Origin: a virus
Taxonomy: Duplodnaviria > Heunggongvirae > Uroviricota > Caudoviricetes
Length of the DNA stretch: 64,000 nt
IMG/VR virus record: IMGVR_UViG_2675903313_000009
Strand: one strand, 5' to 3'
Shown here: positions 6,295 to 17,321 of the stretch, piece after piece
Numbering within the stretch: the stretch's first letter is position 1
How the letters are laid out: the number at the start of each line of letters is the position of its first letter
Position numbers and translations under genes: made by a program
The notes under the pieces: model-generated
What the model was told of the DNA's origin: nothing
The model's database searches: none
The model's input: only the letters and a program-made list of their open reading frames with translations

Positions 6295-7476
6295 ATGAAC
6301 CTTTATATTATATCAACATTTAGGTTGGTCACAATATTGCCTATTAAAAGTGGAATTATCGTGAGCGAGCTGAAAGAGCTAATTACCGAATTAGATTTTG
6401 AACAATGGTTGGACACTGAAGGTATCGTTTATCGACGTGGAGGCGTGAGTGCTCGCGGTCGTGAAGTGAATATCAAGGAGTGTCCGGTATGTGGCAGCTC
6501 CAACTGGAAGGTATATTTCAATCTGACCAGTGGCGTCGGCAAATGCTTTGCTGGTGATCATCCCGAAGAGATTCAGTTCAATAAGCTGATCTTCCTCAAG
6601 CACTACAGCGGTAAATCACGACGACAGTTCGAGGAATATGTGCAGAACGCGCTGATCTCACAAGGATGGGCGCCGAAGAAGGAAGAGGTCGTGCTGGCCA
6701 GCAAGGTTGAACTCGAAGGGCCAGTAGCTCTCCCTCGACATTACGAACTCCCCATTGACGGTCGTCTTCCTGATTATCTGGTGGAGCGCCATATCTCCCC
6801 GGATCTGGCCAAATACTTTGATCTGCGTTACTGCGTCGAAGGCAAGCACGCATACGTCGATCCGTACACAGACCAGGTCAAAGGGCAGGTGTTTGATATG
6901 CGCATCCTGATACCGGTTTACGATCTGGATGGCGTGATGAAGACCTTCCAGGGGCGTGACATTACCGGTGCAGCAGAACGTCGCTACCTCTTTCCTATGC
7001 AGCTTCCAGCTTCAGGTAGGTTTCTCTACAACGGCCATAATGCAGTCGGCAAACAGACTGTAGTTGTCTGTGAGGGGGCGTTCGATGTTATGGGGGTCAA
7101 ACGAGCTATTTTTGACGAAGAAACATTACGTGATTACGTGGAACCAATAGGAACGTTCGGGATGCATCTATCTGGTAACACCACTCAGGATGCAGAAGAT
7201 CAGCTGGGCGCGTTCCTGACGCTCAAGGCGCGTGGGCTACGTAATGTGATTATGATGTGGGATAGTGAAAAGCAGGCTATACGCAACACTATGGCCGCAG
7301 CCAGGCGACTGAGCAGTATTGGTCTTAATGTGAAAATTGCATGTTTGGGCGAGGAAGGACTCGACCCCGGCGATGCGACCCCGGGGCAGATTATCAAAGC
7401 CTACTATTGCGCAAAACCTTACTCACGACAGCTTGAACTTTTAAGCAAGGTAAAAGGCATAGCTGCATTAGTTTGA
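6295..7476 (+). CDS. DNA primase (zinc ribbon plus TOPRIM-like); ORF open from 6223, alternative GTG start at 6361
   Basis: CPVCGSSNW...KCFAGDH zinc-binding motif, acidic VVVCEGAFDVMGV and MMWDSE segments; start context aaagaaaaacacATG. Confidence 0.6.
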   Translation: MNLYIISTFRLVTILPIKSGIIVSELKELITELDFEQWLDTEGIVYRRGGVSARGREVNIKECPVCGSSNWKVYFNLTSGVGKCFAGDHPEEIQFNKLIFLKHYSGKSRRQFEEYVQNALISQGWAPKKEEVVLASKVELEGPVALPRHYELPIDGRLPDYLVERHISPDLAKYFDLRYCVEGKHAYVDPYTDQVKGQVFDMRILIPVYDLDGVMKTFQGRDITGAAERRYLFPMQLPASGRFLYNGHNAVGKQTVVVCEGAFDVMGVKRAIFDEETLRDYVEPIGTFGMHLSGNTTQDAEDQLGAFLTLKARGLRNVIMMWDSEKQAIRNTMAAARRLSSIGLNVKIACLGEEGLDPGDATPGQIIKAYYCAKPYSRQLELLSKVKGIAALV

Positions 7477-12830: not shown

Positions 12831-13220
12831 AAACATATTGATAAGTATTTACTTACTTATCTTTTGTGTATAAGATGACTTTGTTTTCGTTGAGACGCGA
12901 CTGTTTGAACTTAAATACAAGTGCAAACGAAGAAGTCTATCTGGCAGTAGCCTAATAAGCCAAACACCAGCGAGGTCAGTTTCCAGCCTCGTTACCGAAA
13001 TGGGACACACTGAGCGAGTGTGATTGCAGAACGCAGGAGGGAACATTCATGTTCCCTCCGATGAAGTAACAGAATGGGCGGTTGGTATATTTTCAACTCC
13101 ATATGACTCCCGGATTCTTAGCCACTGACCGCCCATCCTGTTACGTCATTTTGTTCAATTATGTCGTTTATACTGGGTTAAAAAGCGGCGACGTAGCCCG
13201 GCTGGTATGGTTAGCCAGCA

Positions 13221-13342
13221 CACAACGTTGAGGCCATTACATTTTTATCAATTCTAAGGTTCTATTCACAGAGATACCGGCGAACGTTGATATGTAACAT
13301 GTTGGGCAAACATTCAATCGGAGTAGTGGCCTCAACGTTGTG
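13221..13342 (+). other. long inverted repeat (16-bp perfect stem, about 90-nt loop) upstream of tRNA cluster
   Basis: cacaacgttgaggcca pairs with tggcctcaacgttgtg; stem sequence resembles the hairpin after tRNA-Ser. Confidence 0.5.
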
Positions 13343-13608
13343 AAGACGGGATTGTTGTGTAGGTTTAACCACTGTTGCCATTGGTGCCTGTTTTCACAAC
13401 AAATGATTCCATACATCACATAGTATAAATTACAAAGTAGGTGCTGTCCTCAGAAACATCATCTACTTAAAGATTTTGCCTTCTACTATTGAGCGAAGTC
13501 GAAAGCGTCTGGCACTAACGAAAAGTGCAAGTAGCGGTGCGTTTCCTGGCAGAAACTAAACCGTCGCGATTGGCACTGTTGAGTAATAAATACTGGCAGT
13601 GCTGAATT

Positions 13609-13683
13609 GATGGTGTAGCTCAGCGGTAGAGCAGTTGGCTGTTAACCAACTGGTCGGTGGTTCGAATCCACCCACCATCGCCA
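13609..13683 (+). tRNA. tRNA-Asn (anticodon GUU)
   Basis: cloverleaf read by eye: acceptor GATGGTG/CACCATC, anticodon loop CTGTTAA, T-loop TTCGAAT, encoded CCA. Confidence 0.85.
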
Positions 13684-13688
13684 ATTTA

Positions 13689-13775
13689 GGGGAGTTAGTC
13701 CGTAGAGGTAGCGGTGTAGACTGTAAATCTACTGTCATGGCGACTCGGGTGGTTCGACTCCATCACTCCCCACCA
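13689..13775 (+). tRNA. tRNA-Tyr (anticodon GUA), class II with long variable arm
   Basis: acceptor GGGGAGT/ACTCCCC, anticodon stem GTAGA/TCTAC with loop CTGTAAA, T-loop TTCGACT, encoded CCA; D-arm not fully resolved. Confidence 0.7.
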
Positions 13776-13779
13776 AATT

Positions 13780-13855
13780 GCCGGTTTAGCTCAGTTGGTA
13801 GAGCAGTCGCTTTGTAAGCGAATGGCCAGCGGTTCAAGTCCGTTAACCGGCACCA
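13780..13855 (+). tRNA. tRNA-Thr (anticodon UGU)
   Basis: acceptor GCCGGTT/AACCGGC, D-arm GCTC-AGTTGGTA-GAGC, anticodon loop TTTGTAA, T-loop TTCAAGT, encoded CCA. Confidence 0.8.
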
Positions 13856-13863
13856 ACACAACA

Positions 13864-13939
13864 GGTAAGAGCATTGGGCGAATCGGCGATACTGACCCAC
13901 AAGGCCGTAAATCGATAGAGTCAGACCAGTGCTCTTACC
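13864..13939 (+). other. inverted-repeat hairpin between tRNA-Thr and tRNA-Ser (14-bp stem)
   Basis: ggtaagagcattgg pairs with ccagtgctcttacc (one G-U), loop about 48 nt. Confidence 0.5.
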
Positions 13940-14045
13940 GTTGTGATGAATGCACAGGCTGATGTGCCGCAACTACAGTAGTGCGCGCTTTGCGGGGCTT
14001 GCTACAACCCTGTGTCGGAGTTCAGTACCGACCATCACAATAGCT

Positions 14046-14132
14046 GGAGAGTAGGGAGCATGGTGCTCAAGCGGTCTTGAAAACCGTTCCATTGTGCAAA
14101 CGATGATGGTTCGATTCCATTACTCTCCGCCA
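14046..14132 (+). tRNA. tRNA-Ser (anticodon UGA), class II
   Basis: acceptor GGAGAGT/ACTCTCC, anticodon stem GCGGT/ACCGT with loop CTTGAAA, long variable arm, T-loop TTCGATT, encoded CCA. Confidence 0.7.
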
Positions 14133-14134
14133 GA

Positions 14135-14212
14135 CACAGCGTTGAGCGGTTTGGCCTTTTAATCAACTCGATTAAGACTCCGCTAACATAAACCAGACCG
14201 CTCAACGCTGTG
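14135..14212 (+). other. inverted-repeat hairpin after tRNA-Ser (16-bp perfect stem)
   Basis: cacagcgttgagcggt pairs with accgctcaacgctgtg, loop 46 nt; stem sequence related to the 13221 hairpin. Confidence 0.5.
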
Positions 14213-14289
14213 ATAGATAATTACGGCAGACGTTCTTAACCATAGCTTGCTAACATCTTAGCAACACTTTTTTCAGCGCAAAATTCAAA

Positions 14290-14309
14290 GGGGCTTCGGC
14301 CCCTTTTTT
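14290..14309. terminator. bidirectional rho-independent terminator
   Basis: ggggc-ttcg-gcccc stem flanked by A-run and T6; sits between the tRNA operon and the convergent minus-strand gene. Confidence 0.8.
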
Positions 14310-14324
14310 GTTGAACAGTGCAAT

Positions 14325-15587
14325 TTACTTTACATAGTCGCCCAGTTTTAATATTTCGCGCTTATATTCTTTAACCATGCTACTGGATTCAGTATAAATT
14401 CGATTTAAAAGATTATCGCTATCTTTATTCTCATTTATCTTAATGAGTGATAATTTAAATTCATAGTCATCAAATGCCACAATCAAATGGTGGCCTGGGA
14501 TTATATCTTCGTCACTCTTGAAGTATATATCTTCAAGTATGTAATCTAGTTGATTAGATTTTCTTTTCTCGATGTAATCTTCAGCCATAGCTATTACATC
14601 ATTCCTGTCATTTAACCTGTTTTTTTCGGAAGGCACATCTTCGTAATGTTGCACGATTGAACAACCAATAAGGCGTGGGATGTAAACGTCAAAATGAGTA
14701 ACTCTATCATTCGCGGTTTTAAGTTGTTCCTCAAAGTAGTTTCTTACATGTAAAGGCAACTTCTCAAAGTAATCATTAATTATAGGAGAACAAGGAGTTT
14801 TATAATTCATAAGAACCGACGGTACGAGCTGTGGGCGTCGAAACATCCAGTCCCTTTTAACGTCCGATGGAACATAATAACTTTTAATGATATTATCAAA
14901 ATAATTTATCATTCGAGATTTGAATATTTTATTGAATCTAAGGTTTATGAATGTATCCAGATAAGGCATATTTGAATAAGCATCATCAAAAAATATTTCA
15001 TCATTGAAAAAATCATATTTATTCAATAAACAACACAGTTTTTCCGAATTAATATGTTCACAATAATCGATTTTTAATCCAAAGATAGCAATGATCAACT
15101 TCATCTGAGGTGGGATTTTAAAAATTAATTGTGATACATACGCTCTTTTTTCCTTGAGACATTCCCCATCAATATAAAATGAACTATCCACATACTCAAA
15201 TATATTAATAATATGCTTCACATACTGTATTACCTCATGCTGTTTTACCAATGGGTAATAGAGTCTATGTAACTCATCGCTGTTTAAATTAATTTTGTGT
15301 TTATCGATAATTTGTTTTGCAAGAAGACATAACGCATCATGTTGATTTAATAAGGAATCAAACCATTGTTTAAATGCACTCTTTCGCATTTCGAACAATG
15401 ATTCAGTTGTTAATTGAAGGGCTGAAAAAGCTGCTTTTGCACTTTTTCTCGCTTCGTAGGCATTCCATGCTGTTGCTATAAAAGCAAATGCTGTAGCCAA
15501 TGTTCCAACAGTTTGACCATTTAAAACAACCCAATCCCAAAAAATAACGGTGAGCAGTAGTATAATAATGAAAATTAAAAAAGGCAT
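14325..15587 (-). CDS. hypothetical membrane-anchored protein, strongly AT-rich accessory gene
   Basis: 420 aa, N-terminal TM helices then large soluble domain; much lower GC than flanking genes; opposite strand. Confidence 0.6.
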   Translation of the reverse strand: MPFLIFIIILLLTVIFWDWVVLNGQTVGTLATAFAFIATAWNAYEARKSAKAAFSALQLTTESLFEMRKSAFKQWFDSLLNQHDALCLLAKQIIDKHKINLNSDELHRLYYPLVKQHEVIQYVKHIINIFEYVDSSFYIDGECLKEKRAYVSQLIFKIPPQMKLIIAIFGLKIDYCEHINSEKLCCLLNKYDFFNDEIFFDDAYSNMPYLDTFINLRFNKIFKSRMINYFDNIIKSYYVPSDVKRDWMFRRPQLVPSVLMNYKTPCSPIINDYFEKLPLHVRNYFEEQLKTANDRVTHFDVYIPRLIGCSIVQHYEDVPSEKNRLNDRNDVIAMAEDYIEKRKSNQLDYILEDIYFKSDEDIIPGHHLIVAFDDYEFKLSLIKINENKDSDNLLNRIYTESSSMVKEYKREILKLGDYVK

Positions 15588-16217: not shown

Positions 16218-17321
16218 ATGAAAAATAGCTTTGACAGAGCACGCGCTGCGGAGAACACCTCAAAAGAGGCGATTGAGTATCTCGAAAGAGCATCTCAAAT
16301 GCAGGCCGTTATGATCTCGCAGGTCAGCAATGACATGAGATTCTCGGACGCATTCATGTTATTCACTCGCTTATCTCTGCTGATAACAAGACGTCGGCCA
16401 GAGATCGCTGTTCATTGTATTTTGATACATGTTTTGCCGCACATTGCCGATGTAAAAGTAAGTGACATTAATAGGTTCATGGTGAACCAACTGGTCAACC
16501 CACTAATACTGGATGGCAAAATTGTTATGGGCCGCCGCGTTTTCTCTCTGATGAAGCAGTTCCTTAGCTGGTGCGCCTTCCAGGGGATGATAGACGTGTC
16601 ACCGTTAAACGATATGTCACTAAACAAAGTTGCCGGTGGCGCAAAGCCCACACCTCGCGAGCGGAAGCTGACCGACGCAGAGGTATGGGTGTTCTGGAAT
16701 ATATGGGACTACTTCAATGTGTGCGCTGGTACAAAATGGGCGGCCAGGCTGTGTCTTGTATCCGCAAGACGACCTGACGAAGTACTGCGGGCTAAAAAAA
16801 GTGAGTTCAATCTTAAGCGTGGGGTTTGGAATCAAGGCAAGAGGAACAAATCTGCCCGTGAGCATTCGCTGCCTTTAAGCACATTAATGCGCACATGTAT
16901 TGAAGAGTTGTTCGAATACGGTAAAGGCAGCCAGTGGCTCGTGCCTTCGAATAAAAAAATCGGGAAAGACCTTCCTATGTCTAAAGTGGCAATAGCCCAG
17001 GCATTACGTCGTATCCTGGAACGACCAGAACTGATGGAGCTTGAGCCATTTACACCCCGAGACTTGCGCCGTACTGCGCGTAGTTACTTCCCAGCATTAG
17101 GCATAAGCCAGGAGGTATCACGCAAAATCATGAACCACAGTCTTGAGGGGATAGATCGAGTCTACGACCGGCACGATTATATGGACGAGATGCGAGACGC
17201 CTTAGAAAGTTTCTCGACGTACATCGCATCAATCGTAGAGCAACCGGATTTAGACGAAATTGACCACAAATTCAAGGGAGATCGTCTATCAACAGAGCTT
17301 ATTCGTGTAAATTTTTCATAG
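16218..17321 (+). CDS. tyrosine recombinase (integrase/resolvase family)
   Basis: catalytic-domain motifs LVSARRPDE, TPRDLRRTARSYF and HSLEGIDRVYDRHDY (R...H-x-x-R...Y). Confidence 0.8.
   Translation: MKNSFDRARAAENTSKEAIEYLERASQMQAVMISQVSNDMRFSDAFMLFTRLSLLITRRRPEIAVHCILIHVLPHIADVKVSDINRFMVNQLVNPLILDGKIVMGRRVFSLMKQFLSWCAFQGMIDVSPLNDMSLNKVAGGAKPTPRERKLTDAEVWVFWNIWDYFNVCAGTKWAARLCLVSARRPDEVLRAKKSEFNLKRGVWNQGKRNKSAREHSLPLSTLMRTCIEELFEYGKGSQWLVPSNKKIGKDLPMSKVAIAQALRRILERPELMELEPFTPRDLRRTARSYFPALGISQEVSRKIMNHSLEGIDRVYDRHDYMDEMRDALESFSTYIASIVEQPDLDEIDHKFKGDRLSTELIRVNFS

Follow-up and report, generated by a model that had tools for sequence, protein, structure and literature searches.

Long stems and a conserved structured RNA unit among the tRNA genes of a Caudoviricetes genome, with relatives in temperate phages

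Introduction

Phage tRNA operons that carry processing structures and tRNA-like RNAs are of known kinds. The tRNA cluster of phage T4 encodes the stable RNAs 'species 1' and 'species 2' (bands C and D), which have no known function, are co-transcribed with the tRNAs and are matured by the tRNA-processing machinery; we know of no widespread occurrence of these RNAs beyond T4-like phages. Here we analyse the tRNA block of a 64,000-nucleotide (nt) stretch of Caudoviricetes DNA (IMG/VR record IMGVR_UViG_2675903313_000009; hereafter the window, with position 1 as its first letter), in which four tRNA genes are interleaved with long stems of related sequence, the A stems, and with a single structured unit, the B unit, at 13940-14041. 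Phage tRNA clusters are usually annotated as tRNAs and meaningless spacers, and the spacers of this block are conserved RNA modules. The least conspicuous item of an earlier, sequence-only reading of this DNA, the stretch 13940-14041, proved to be its most conserved element. It resembles T4 species 1 and 2 in being a small structured RNA inside a phage tRNA cluster. T4 is, however, a virulent phage, whereas B units belong to temperate phages from many Proteobacteria and for the most part have no tRNA genes nearby.

The A stems resemble the RNase III stems of rRNA leaders and trailers and of the T7 early hairpins, being duplexes of about 20 bp between the RNAs of a polycistronic transcript, with the duplex and not the loop kept. 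They differ from the rRNA stems in being local hairpins set on the CCA ends of tRNAs rather than leader-trailer pairings, and from RNase III stems generally in forming a homologous sequence family in enterobacterial phages; their own cleavage is putative. Theta ribozymes, minimal relatives of the hepatitis delta virus (HDV) ribozyme, occur 3' of tRNAs in gut phages and have been proposed to define the tRNA 3' end. A stems share this place immediately 3' of phage tRNAs, but are simple long hairpins with variable loops, whereas theta ribozymes are nested double pseudoknots. At the DNA level A stems are comparable to repetitive extragenic palindromes and bacterial interspersed mosaic elements (REP/BIME) and to integron attC sites, all being repeated imperfect palindromes that alternate in orientation between genes, with variable centres between conserved inverted cores and with core-bounded insertions or deletions (indels). 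Unlike these, A stems are fixed in orientation to transcription and show no pattern of extrahelical bases, and no recombinase family, integron integrases included, recurred across the loci.

The B unit shares a closing helix and tRNA-like arms with the described tRNA mimics (YrlA/Y RNAs, the tRNA-like domain of tmRNA, viral tRNA-like structures and mascRNA), but has five to six Watson-Crick loop-loop pairs in place of their elbow. Many B units stand at positions analogous to those of HK022 put and lambda nut, which are likewise RNA elements in early and late operon leaders of temperate phages.

A tRNA-shaped RNA unit upstream of tRNA-Ser

The B family was found by comparing the segment that follows stem S2 in the window with its counterparts in phages P1, HK629 and IME207, which showed conserved ends and a variable middle. 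In the consensus, the 5' strand of a closing helix (helix P1) is followed by AAU, the hairpin GCGCAGGCUGAUGCGC, a variable domain of 24-160 nt, the hairpin GCCGGAGAUCAGCACCGGC and the 3' strand of helix P1, which the second hairpin meets without a linker. A member is thus defined by a closing helix of at least 7 bp, AAU, a GCRCAGRCUGAUGYGC hairpin (P2), the variable domain, a GYYGGAGWUCAGYRCCRRC hairpin (P3) and complementary hairpin loops. Every one of these features is present on the plus strand of the window at 13940-14041: helix P1 (13940-13948/14033-14041, with an inner 7 bp at 13942-13948/14033-14039), the AAU linker (13949-13951), hairpin P2 (13952-13967), the variable domain (13968-14011), hairpin P3 (14014-14032) and a loop-loop pairing of 13958-13962 with 14022-14026. 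The window copy is slightly diverged (GCACAGGCUGAUGUGC; GUCGGAGUUCAGUACCGAC) with every pairing kept. A covariance model built from chromosomal matches only, with the window excluded (R2), had a single match in the 64-kb window, at 13940-14041 (68.8 bits; E = 3.4e-18), and a second covariance model (R1) scored the unit at 74.3 bits. The sequence-only reading had described 13940-14040 as folding into nested stems; that the stretch is structured is upheld by the match to R2, whereas its folding energy is not significant (13938-14044; z -1.1).

Pairing in the family is supported by compensatory change. Across 58 distinct units 88.6% of the alignment cells were paired compared to 77% in shuffles, and double changes occupied 193 cells compared to 73. 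The inner 7 bp of helix P1 were at least 95% paired, with at most five pair types per column, and its outer pairs faded. Both hairpin stems covaried. The variable position of the loop-loop contact was GC in 47, AU in five and GU in five of these units, and in the set from genomes all five loop-loop positions were paired in 60 of 62 members. At locus L298 (6990-7083, minus strand) both kissing loops had changed together, from the usual GCUGA/UCAGC to GAUGA/UCAUC, and a second B unit stood 180 nt away, at 7263-7399.

For the members with the shortest variable domains (79-83 nt in total length) the minimum free energy fold was a four-arm cloverleaf. From secondary structure and covariation, the topology is that of a tRNA: a 7-bp helix coaxial with a 5-bp arm, a four-arm junction and a contact between two loops. 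As we read the model, P2 would stand at the position of the D arm, the variable domain at that of the anticodon arm and P3 at that of the T arm, with the kissing loops replacing the elbow. The unit also fills a tRNA slot in the window and its relatives, as the 5' end of tRNA-Ser, read from the sequence, lies 4 nt past the closing helix, a spacing like that between the true tRNAs. The loops of B units have no canonical T or D loop sequence and no conserved anticodon-like loop. The discriminator position was A in 17 of 34 units and was followed by CC in 11 of 34, a weak and inconsistent enrichment of CCA. The extreme conservation of both hairpins hints at a specific, universally conserved partner. 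A small open reading frame (ORF) was considered for the core and rejected: ATG often precedes it, but the frame is inconsistent among members and the flanks covary as a helix.

A stems at the 3' ends of tRNA runs

Three A-type stems stand on the plus strand of the window. S1 (13221-13240/13323-13342; CACAACGTTGAGGCCATTAC / GTAGTGGCCTCAACGTTGTG; 82-nt loop) has 20 bp, of which 19 are Watson-Crick and one is U.G. S2 (13857-13877/13926-13945) begins 1 nt past the CCA of tRNA-Thr and reads CACAAC, a bulged A (A13863), GGTAAGAGCATTGG, a 48-nt loop, CCAGTGCTCTTACC and GTTGTG, giving 6 + 14 bp around the bulge. S3 (14135-14154/14193-14212; CACAGCGTTGAGCGGTTTGG / CCAGACCGCTCAACGCTGTG; 38-nt loop) begins 2 nt past the CCA of tRNA-Ser and has 20 bp including one U.G. 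Against 200 dinucleotide shuffles per stem their folds had z-scores of -6.3, -6.0 and -9.8, with none of the 200 equally stable. The three long stems of the sequence-only reading are therefore present and 6-10 standard deviations more stable than shuffles, with S1 and S3 extending to 20 bp and S2 to 13857-13945; the 'perfect' 14-bp stem described at 13864-13877/13926-13939 is there, but consists of 13 Watson-Crick pairs plus one U.G. Sequence sharing, noted earlier for two stems, was correctly seen and holds for all three, which start with CACA(A/G)C and finish with G(T/C)TGTGA. They were also rightly taken for a repeated element rather than ordinary terminators, given that they lack a U-tract, keep a fixed orientation 3' of tRNAs and have covarying arms. 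An intrinsic terminator reading of S1-S3 was tried and rejected (loops of 38-82 nt, no T-run), with only the hairpin at 14287-14306 qualifying.

Two further stems had been missed. S0 (13061-13149, plus strand; 22-nt arms ATGAAGTAACAGAATGGGCGGT / ACCGCCCATCCTGTTACGTCAT; 45-nt loop; z -5.3) is a looser relative of the A-stem family; compensatory changes preserve it in plasmids of Klebsiella and Enterobacter and in plasmids like pHCM2 of S. Typhi and pMT1 of Y. pestis. S1b (13337-13400, plus strand; GTTGTGAAGACGGG / CCTGTTTTCACAAC; z -3.4) shares GTTGTG with the 3' arm of S1 and occupies the position of a B unit, without the B core; neither R1 nor R2 matched it. Two additional complementarities were observed: the loop region of S1b (13353-13392) with 13845-13863 (the 3' end of tRNA-Thr and the start of S2), and CAACCCTGTGTC in the B unit (14005-14016) with GACACAGCGTTG past tRNA-Ser (14133-14144), which would enclose tRNA-Ser. 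These could be alternative leader-trailer pairings or by-products of repeated motifs.

Relatives of the A stems were collected with a degenerate pattern for both arms, which returned 62 viral contigs. Of the 76 hairpins in these contigs, 70 abutted the 3' end of a tRNA, with their first nucleotide anywhere from 3 nt inside the CCA to 2 nt past it, and the abutting stems were co-oriented with the tRNA every time. When all tRNAs of all loci were scanned, A stems stood only 3' of the last tRNA in each run: tRNA-Ser bore one in 38 of 39 distinct contexts and tRNA-Thr or tRNA-Asn did so when last of its run, and internal tRNA-tRNA junctions had spacers of only 2-5 nt. The middle triplets of the arms swap compensatorily (GCC/GGC, AGC/GCT, CGG/CCG, AAC/GTT, ACC/GGT), as do the arms of S1 among its relatives (GGCC/GGCC, GGTC/GGCC, GACC/GGTC), and S3 carries double compensatory changes in the pHCM2-like locus L013. 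S2 arms recur with different loops in P1-like, lambdoid and SSU5-like relatives. Over 31 distinct arm pairs there were 146 double-change cells compared to 44 in shuffles, with at most five pair types per column. Read on the tRNA strand, the non-Watson-Crick pairs were G.U in 39 cases compared to A.C in 12, and one U.G is conserved at equal height near the top of S0, S1, S2 and S3; many of these counts are not independent, and the G.U excess is suggestive of a function as plus-strand RNA.

A-stem loops diverge quickly or are replaced. Stem length clusters at 19-23 bp across taxa, or about two helical turns, and duplexes of about two turns are the size class cut by E. coli RNase III; the A stems of about 20 bp, as near-perfect duplexes, fall in that class. 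In virulent phage N4 and an rV5-like phage a tRNA is followed immediately by a 12-19-bp stem with a 46-75-nt loop and an unrelated stem sequence, which makes the layout more general than the sequence family. N4 (L081, NC_008720) also carries an unannotated degenerate tRNA-like sequence at 1318-1383, ending in GGTTCGAGTCCAGACGCCGGAACCA, and at 1383-1495 a 19-bp stem whose 75-nt loop itself looks tRNA-like, its acceptor reading UUUUGGU/ACCAGAG and its T arm (TTAGGTTCGAATCCTAA) being perfect; neither of the two N4 sequences was called by ARAGORN. The hairpins that follow tRNA-Ser in LL12 (rV5-like; L082, 1805-1893) and in a P1-like plasmid (L015, 2154-2263) have homologous loops (AATTAAGCGAA.GCCGGAAGCAGAACCGGAT..CAAATG) and different stems, although the phages are unrelated and elsewhere it is usually the stem that is kept and the loop that varies.

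Coupling of the A stem and the B unit

Just upstream of 64 of 119 distinct B units from many taxa there was a stem, 12 bp or longer and typically of 19-23 bp, with its 3' arm overlapping the 5' strand of helix P1, compared to 5 of 119 at a control position. The stems coupled in this way have sequences unrelated between taxa and occur in unrelated phages. The first 6-7 nt of the A-stem 5' arm are identical in sequence to the 3' strand of helix P1, and the last 6-7 nt of its 3' arm are the 5' strand of helix P1, so that pairing at the A-stem base and pairing in the B closing helix are mutually exclusive. For S2 and the B unit of the window the three segments are CACAAC (13857-13862), GTTGTG (13940-13945) and CACAA (14036-14040). 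As a result of this exclusion, the B unit would have to open the base of the A stem in order to fold, which would uncover the sequence beside the CCA of the upstream tRNA. S1 and S3 stand without a B unit.

Distribution of the B family

Collections of B units were seeded with exact 17-19-mers. The 17-nt 5' pattern occurred in at least 120 viral contigs, and 90 distinct units among the matches listed also had the 3' motif. The exact 19-mer occurred in at least 120 species genomes, with alpha-, beta-, gamma- and delta-proteobacteria among the matches listed, together with a few Bacteroidota and other metagenome-assembled genomes that are maybe mis-binned; nearly all of these listed matches were full-length covariance-model matches. 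Five loci (L275, L208, L285, L233 and L251) carry the 19-mer at 25-32 bits without the 3' hairpin and look like chance or protein-coding matches, so that about 10-15% of pattern matches are not true units. The family has sequence conservation at the level of tRNA and is carried by, among others, phage P1, phage-plasmids from clinical Enterobacteriaceae and lambdoid coliphages. A prophage copy was present in about 354 of 5426 complete E. coli genomes and was unannotated at every match in the E. coli genome records inspected. Where tRNAs lie near B units they are co-oriented (24 of 24 cases). To look for a partner protein, 2097 ORFs flanking the 120 loci listed were clustered; no family occurred at more than 11 loci, and the largest was the CI-like repressor.

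Phage P1 has the elements in its C1-controlled ban operon, where they are flanked by trnT and tciA and run antisense to plp and upl. At this locus (L016, NC_005856; 1171-1740, or 69472-70041 of the record) plp and upl are annotated opposite trnA/trnT and the ban operon, and the plp/upl region is overlaid by three A-type stems and B units (R1 match at 1516-1617 of the locus; 72.9 bits). plp and upl may thus be mis-annotated ORFs over conserved RNA structures. Upstream of the tRNAs, in the ban-operon leader, a 'dicF-like region' is annotated (490-591 of L016; 68791-68892 of the record); the corresponding part of the window had no DicF or other Rfam match. In HK629 (L017, NC_019711; 1375-2133) an HNH endonuclease gene stands between a putative late promoter and an A stem with B unit, which may be coincidence or a sign of homing-type mobility of the neighbourhood.

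Comparison with known RNA families and elements

Searches of the window region, 17 canonical loci and one Xanthomonas locus with Rfam 15, at gathering or permissive thresholds, returned only tRNA matches. An sX4 match over tRNA-Ser and S3 was discarded (19.7 bits against a cut-off of 70). A literature search by topic and by sequence words, incomplete in its coverage, found no description of the B family. Self-cleaving ribozymes (HDV-like/theta, hammerhead, twister and others) were considered and rejected, with no Rfam match at E <=10 in the window region or at E <=1-5 in the canonical B units.

Two mobile-element classes were also rejected. The attC core consensus is RYYYAAC/GTTRRRY, and the cores of the A stems, (A)CACAAC/GTTGTG(A), break it at the third and fifth positions. 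As for miniature inverted-repeat transposable elements, S1-S3 and their homologues keep their arms but have interiors that are unrelated or diverge fast, and copies are not near-identical. The idea of a YrlA RNA arose from a T-arm-like GGGTTCGAATCCC in hairpin loops of phage P1 and from the tRNA-sized loop in the N4 hairpin. The defining features of YrlA RNAs (PMC4201824) are canonical T and D arms, a gene linked to rsr and a GNCGAAN0-1G motif on the 5' side of the stem. There was no Rfam match to YrlA or Y RNA, no T arm outside the tRNAs of the window, no GNCGAA Ro motif and no neighbouring rsr, and this candidate was likewise dropped.

Interpretation and alternative explanations

That the A and B elements act as RNA is very probable, given their orientation, the G.U bias and the covariation, which includes a tertiary pair. 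For the tRNA block we favour, tentatively and with a confidence that falls just short of an even balance, a polycistronic precursor from which the tRNAs and the tRNA-shaped unit would be released by host tRNA maturation, the A stems being opened by RNase III. Such a precursor would be one RNA of three kinds of module, the four tRNAs, the A stems and one B unit. RNase P at the 5' ends and exonucleases at the 3' ends would excise the tRNAs and also the B unit. Since the A stems leave no single-stranded trailer past the CCA, opening by RNase III is proposed; the cut would provide an entry point for exonucleases, and the stems would insulate the folding of neighbouring modules from one another. 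Folding of B would displace the base of the A stem and so expose the trailer of the upstream tRNA.

The sequence-only reading had offered processing signals, small stable RNAs or remnants of a mobile unit, and each gains some support, with none singled out by the tests. Position and orientation favour the first. The second draws some support from 13940-14041 being a conserved structured RNA, and the third from presence/absence polymorphisms bounded by 6-8-nt direct repeats.

Several points weigh against the precursor. ARAGORN and the Rfam tRNA model do not detect B units, and only a minority of units have a canonical NCCA past the closing helix. An exact 19-mer is shared across bacterial classes, which is more conservation than a simple processing signal seems to need. 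Of the B units in viral contigs, 64 of 74 have no tRNA within 1.5 kb, so that the primary role of the unit would not be specific to tRNA clusters. The A-stem alignment was preselected for at least 18 of 20 pairs, which biases its percentage of pairing and leaves only the covariation counts informative. Fast loop turnover and the differences in A-B cassettes between near-identical plasmids also fit mobility at the DNA level. Finally, the parts of RNase III and RNase P are purely what we infer, and any role of a released tRNA-like RNA would have the same standing.

A bolder proposal, less likely than not but with a fair chance, is that A-B is a new RNA device of temperate phages: an ultra-conserved tRNA-shaped RNA whose acceptor-like helix competes with an upstream 20-bp stem for a single strand would undergo co-transcriptional strand exchange, engage a universal host machine (RNase P or other tRNA enzymes, or RNA polymerase) and control the maturation or expression of phage operons. 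If true, this would be a new class of phage-host RNA interface and not spacer. A still bolder variant would make the invariant B core catalytic. If the modules are real and functional, they would give phage biology a new structured RNA, a handle on phage tRNA maturation and on the punctuation of long operons, and an annotation correction for plp/upl of phage P1 and an ORF of phage Cyrano, which lie antisense over the structures.

Transcriptional regulation is an unlikely alternative. A-B would here be a cis-acting leader RNA for antitermination or anti-pausing (put-like), or a switch acting on terminators or Rho access, with its location in a tRNA cluster incidental. B units do occupy operon leaders and intergenic gaps, with flanking ORFs mostly co-oriented, at sites like those of nut and put: in early leaders that follow CI-like repressor genes (11 loci), ahead of genes for RecT, Sak4-like, primase and ParB-like proteins, in one contig upstream of a spanin-like (lysis) ORF and after an ORF of unknown function, and in HK629 past the annotated putative late promoter/HNH endonuclease gene and before the holin gene. 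A terminator lay within 100 nt downstream of 20 of 95 units compared to 5-8 of 95 controls, the exclusion between A base and B helix resembles an attenuator-type switch, and hairpins near-invariant across classes would suit recognition by a universally conserved machine, RNA polymerase for example. Enterobacterial A stems, moreover, have in their 3' arms the word GCTCTT(A/T), which is boxA-like when set beside the boxA consensus. This word is, however, confined to the enterobacterial subfamily, and the terminator enrichment is modest. In the window, the module stands at the 3' end of its unit, where only a tRNA, a stem and a terminator lie beyond it, leaving nothing to antiterminate. An HK022-type put was rejected: the B core motifs are absent from 24-40.7 kb of HK022, R1 gives only a 14-bit match there, and the architecture of B differs from the fold of HK022 put, a 70-nt V-shaped two-stem RNA (PMC9378689). 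HK022-type put RNAs stand just past PL/PR.

We consider it similarly improbable that the modules are primarily DNA-level cassettes, in which the stems would be recombination or insertion sites, tRNA, A and B segments would be swapped at the core repeats (CACAAC / CAACGTTG) and RNA structure would be secondary; such swaps could come about through site-specific recombination, through an insertion that duplicates its target or through slipped-strand deletion. Turnover is rapid. Among plasmids otherwise 93-99% identical, the Thr-Ser spacer has at least six configurations, among them nothing (Cyrano), the A+B of the window, another A+B, two in tandem or a P1-type variant. Filled and empty sites differ by segments bounded by 6-8-nt direct repeats (ACACAA(C/T); CAACGTTG): Cyrano reads Thr-ACACAATT-Ser where the window reads Thr-ACACAAC[A+B]CACAAT-AGCT-Ser, and S1 is precisely absent from L010, with one CAACGTTG remaining (CGCAACGTTGTGG, compared to CGCAACGTTG[S1]CAACGTTGTGG in L012). 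Portions of the block also recur at about 95% identity in unrelated phages (P1-like phages and plasmids, lambdoid phages and prophages, SSU5-like), and remnants of the tRNA-Thr 3' end accompany A stems that have no tRNA. These indels fit target-duplicating insertion, slippage deletion at the hairpin base or homologous exchange through shared arms equally well, and since replication slippage deletes at short repeats at the base of a hairpin they need no dedicated machinery. No recombinase or other protein family co-occurs with the modules. Copies within the same genome differ in their variable parts, giving no sign of recent transposition. The orientation to transcription is fixed, G.U pairs outnumber A.C on the transcribed strand, and the loop-loop covariation has no rationale at the level of DNA.

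Equally low in our estimate is a tRNA mimic acting in trans, in which a released B unit would titrate a host tRNA-binding factor (a modification or processing enzyme, a translation factor or a tRNA-targeting defence nuclease) as decoy or hijacker. Phage tRNAs may themselves counter host defences directed at tRNA, and the cloverleaf topology and dimensions, the invariant arms around a freely variable 'anticodon' domain, the very wide spread in temperate phages and prophages and the co-location with phage tRNAs are all consistent with such mimicry; variants replace one another quickly at a single locus, as an arms race would predict. Set against this are the lack of the T, D and anticodon-like loop features and of a consistent CCA end, the search among flanking families, which returned no partner, and the coupled A stem, which mimicry leaves unexplained; the proposal is entirely inferential. 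It is extremely improbable that the stems arose as chance palindromes or serve as ordinary terminators, with an unstructured spacer for the 100-nt stretch, as the weak energy z-score of 13938-14044 is outweighed by stem z-scores of -6 to -10, the lack of U-tracts, the compensatory changes and the independent 68.8-bit model match.

The tRNA genes, the transcription unit and relatives of the locus

Over the full 64 kb of the window ARAGORN called exactly four tRNA genes, each of them on the plus strand: tRNA-Asn (GTT; 13609-13683; Rfam 75.5 bits), tRNA-Tyr (GTA; 13689-13775; long variable arm), tRNA-Thr (TGT; 13780-13855; Rfam 69 bits) and tRNA-Ser (TGA; 14046-14132; long variable arm). All four were also called by Rfam, the top score of tRNA-Ser being with the long-arm tRNA-Sec model, and all have an encoded CCA read from the sequence, in agreement with the four genes originally described; running ARAGORN and Rfam on the block was the check first suggested for them. 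A scan of the window for T-arm motifs found none besides those of the four tRNAs. tRNA-Tyr is missing from phage Cyrano, in which (L001, OV696614; 3734-3946) the hypothetical gene CYRAN_40 spans tRNA-Thr, tRNA-Ser and S3 on the minus strand and is probably a spurious ORF.

The tRNAs, A stems and B unit share one strand between the plus-strand ORFs upstream and a single strong intrinsic terminator, a hairpin at 14287-14306 (AAAGGGGC TTCG GCCCCTTT) with a T-run to 14314. This is the only terminator-like site, closing the plus-strand unit, and the next gene downstream (14325-15587) is on the minus strand, so that the block is apparently the non-coding tail of the plus-strand unit. Accordingly, 12950-14320 looks like the non-coding 3' end of a plus-strand operon, presumably transcribed as one unit, of an SSU5-like phage-plasmid. 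At 97-99.6% identity the region matches non-mobilizable plasmids of E. coli, about 105-120 kb in size. Plasmid matches amount to 1308 records (Escherichia, Klebsiella, Salmonella, Enterobacter and Yersinia), and phages CMS-2020a and Cyrano likewise match the region. We take these relatives to be SSU5-like phage-plasmids, a name suggested by the sequence matches.

The tRNA block adjoins a hot spot for cargo insertion. The cargo downstream of the non-coding block varies, being caf1R/caf1M (F1 capsule) in Y. pestis NZ_CP009989 (L014, 1500-3295), where the block ends after the S1 stem and no tRNA was called, and AbiH, PhoH or a recombinase in the relatives L010, L011 and L012. The window itself has an integrase-like ORF at 16218-17321. 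Upstream of S0, at 12831-13006, there were sub-threshold matches to Rfam tmRNA models (14-15 bits), and beside them stands a perfect 11-bp hairpin (13036-13059) with covariation among relatives. A comparably weak tmRNA-like match lies upstream of a B unit at L126 (958-1061), and the match in the window is probably a tRNA-like remnant.

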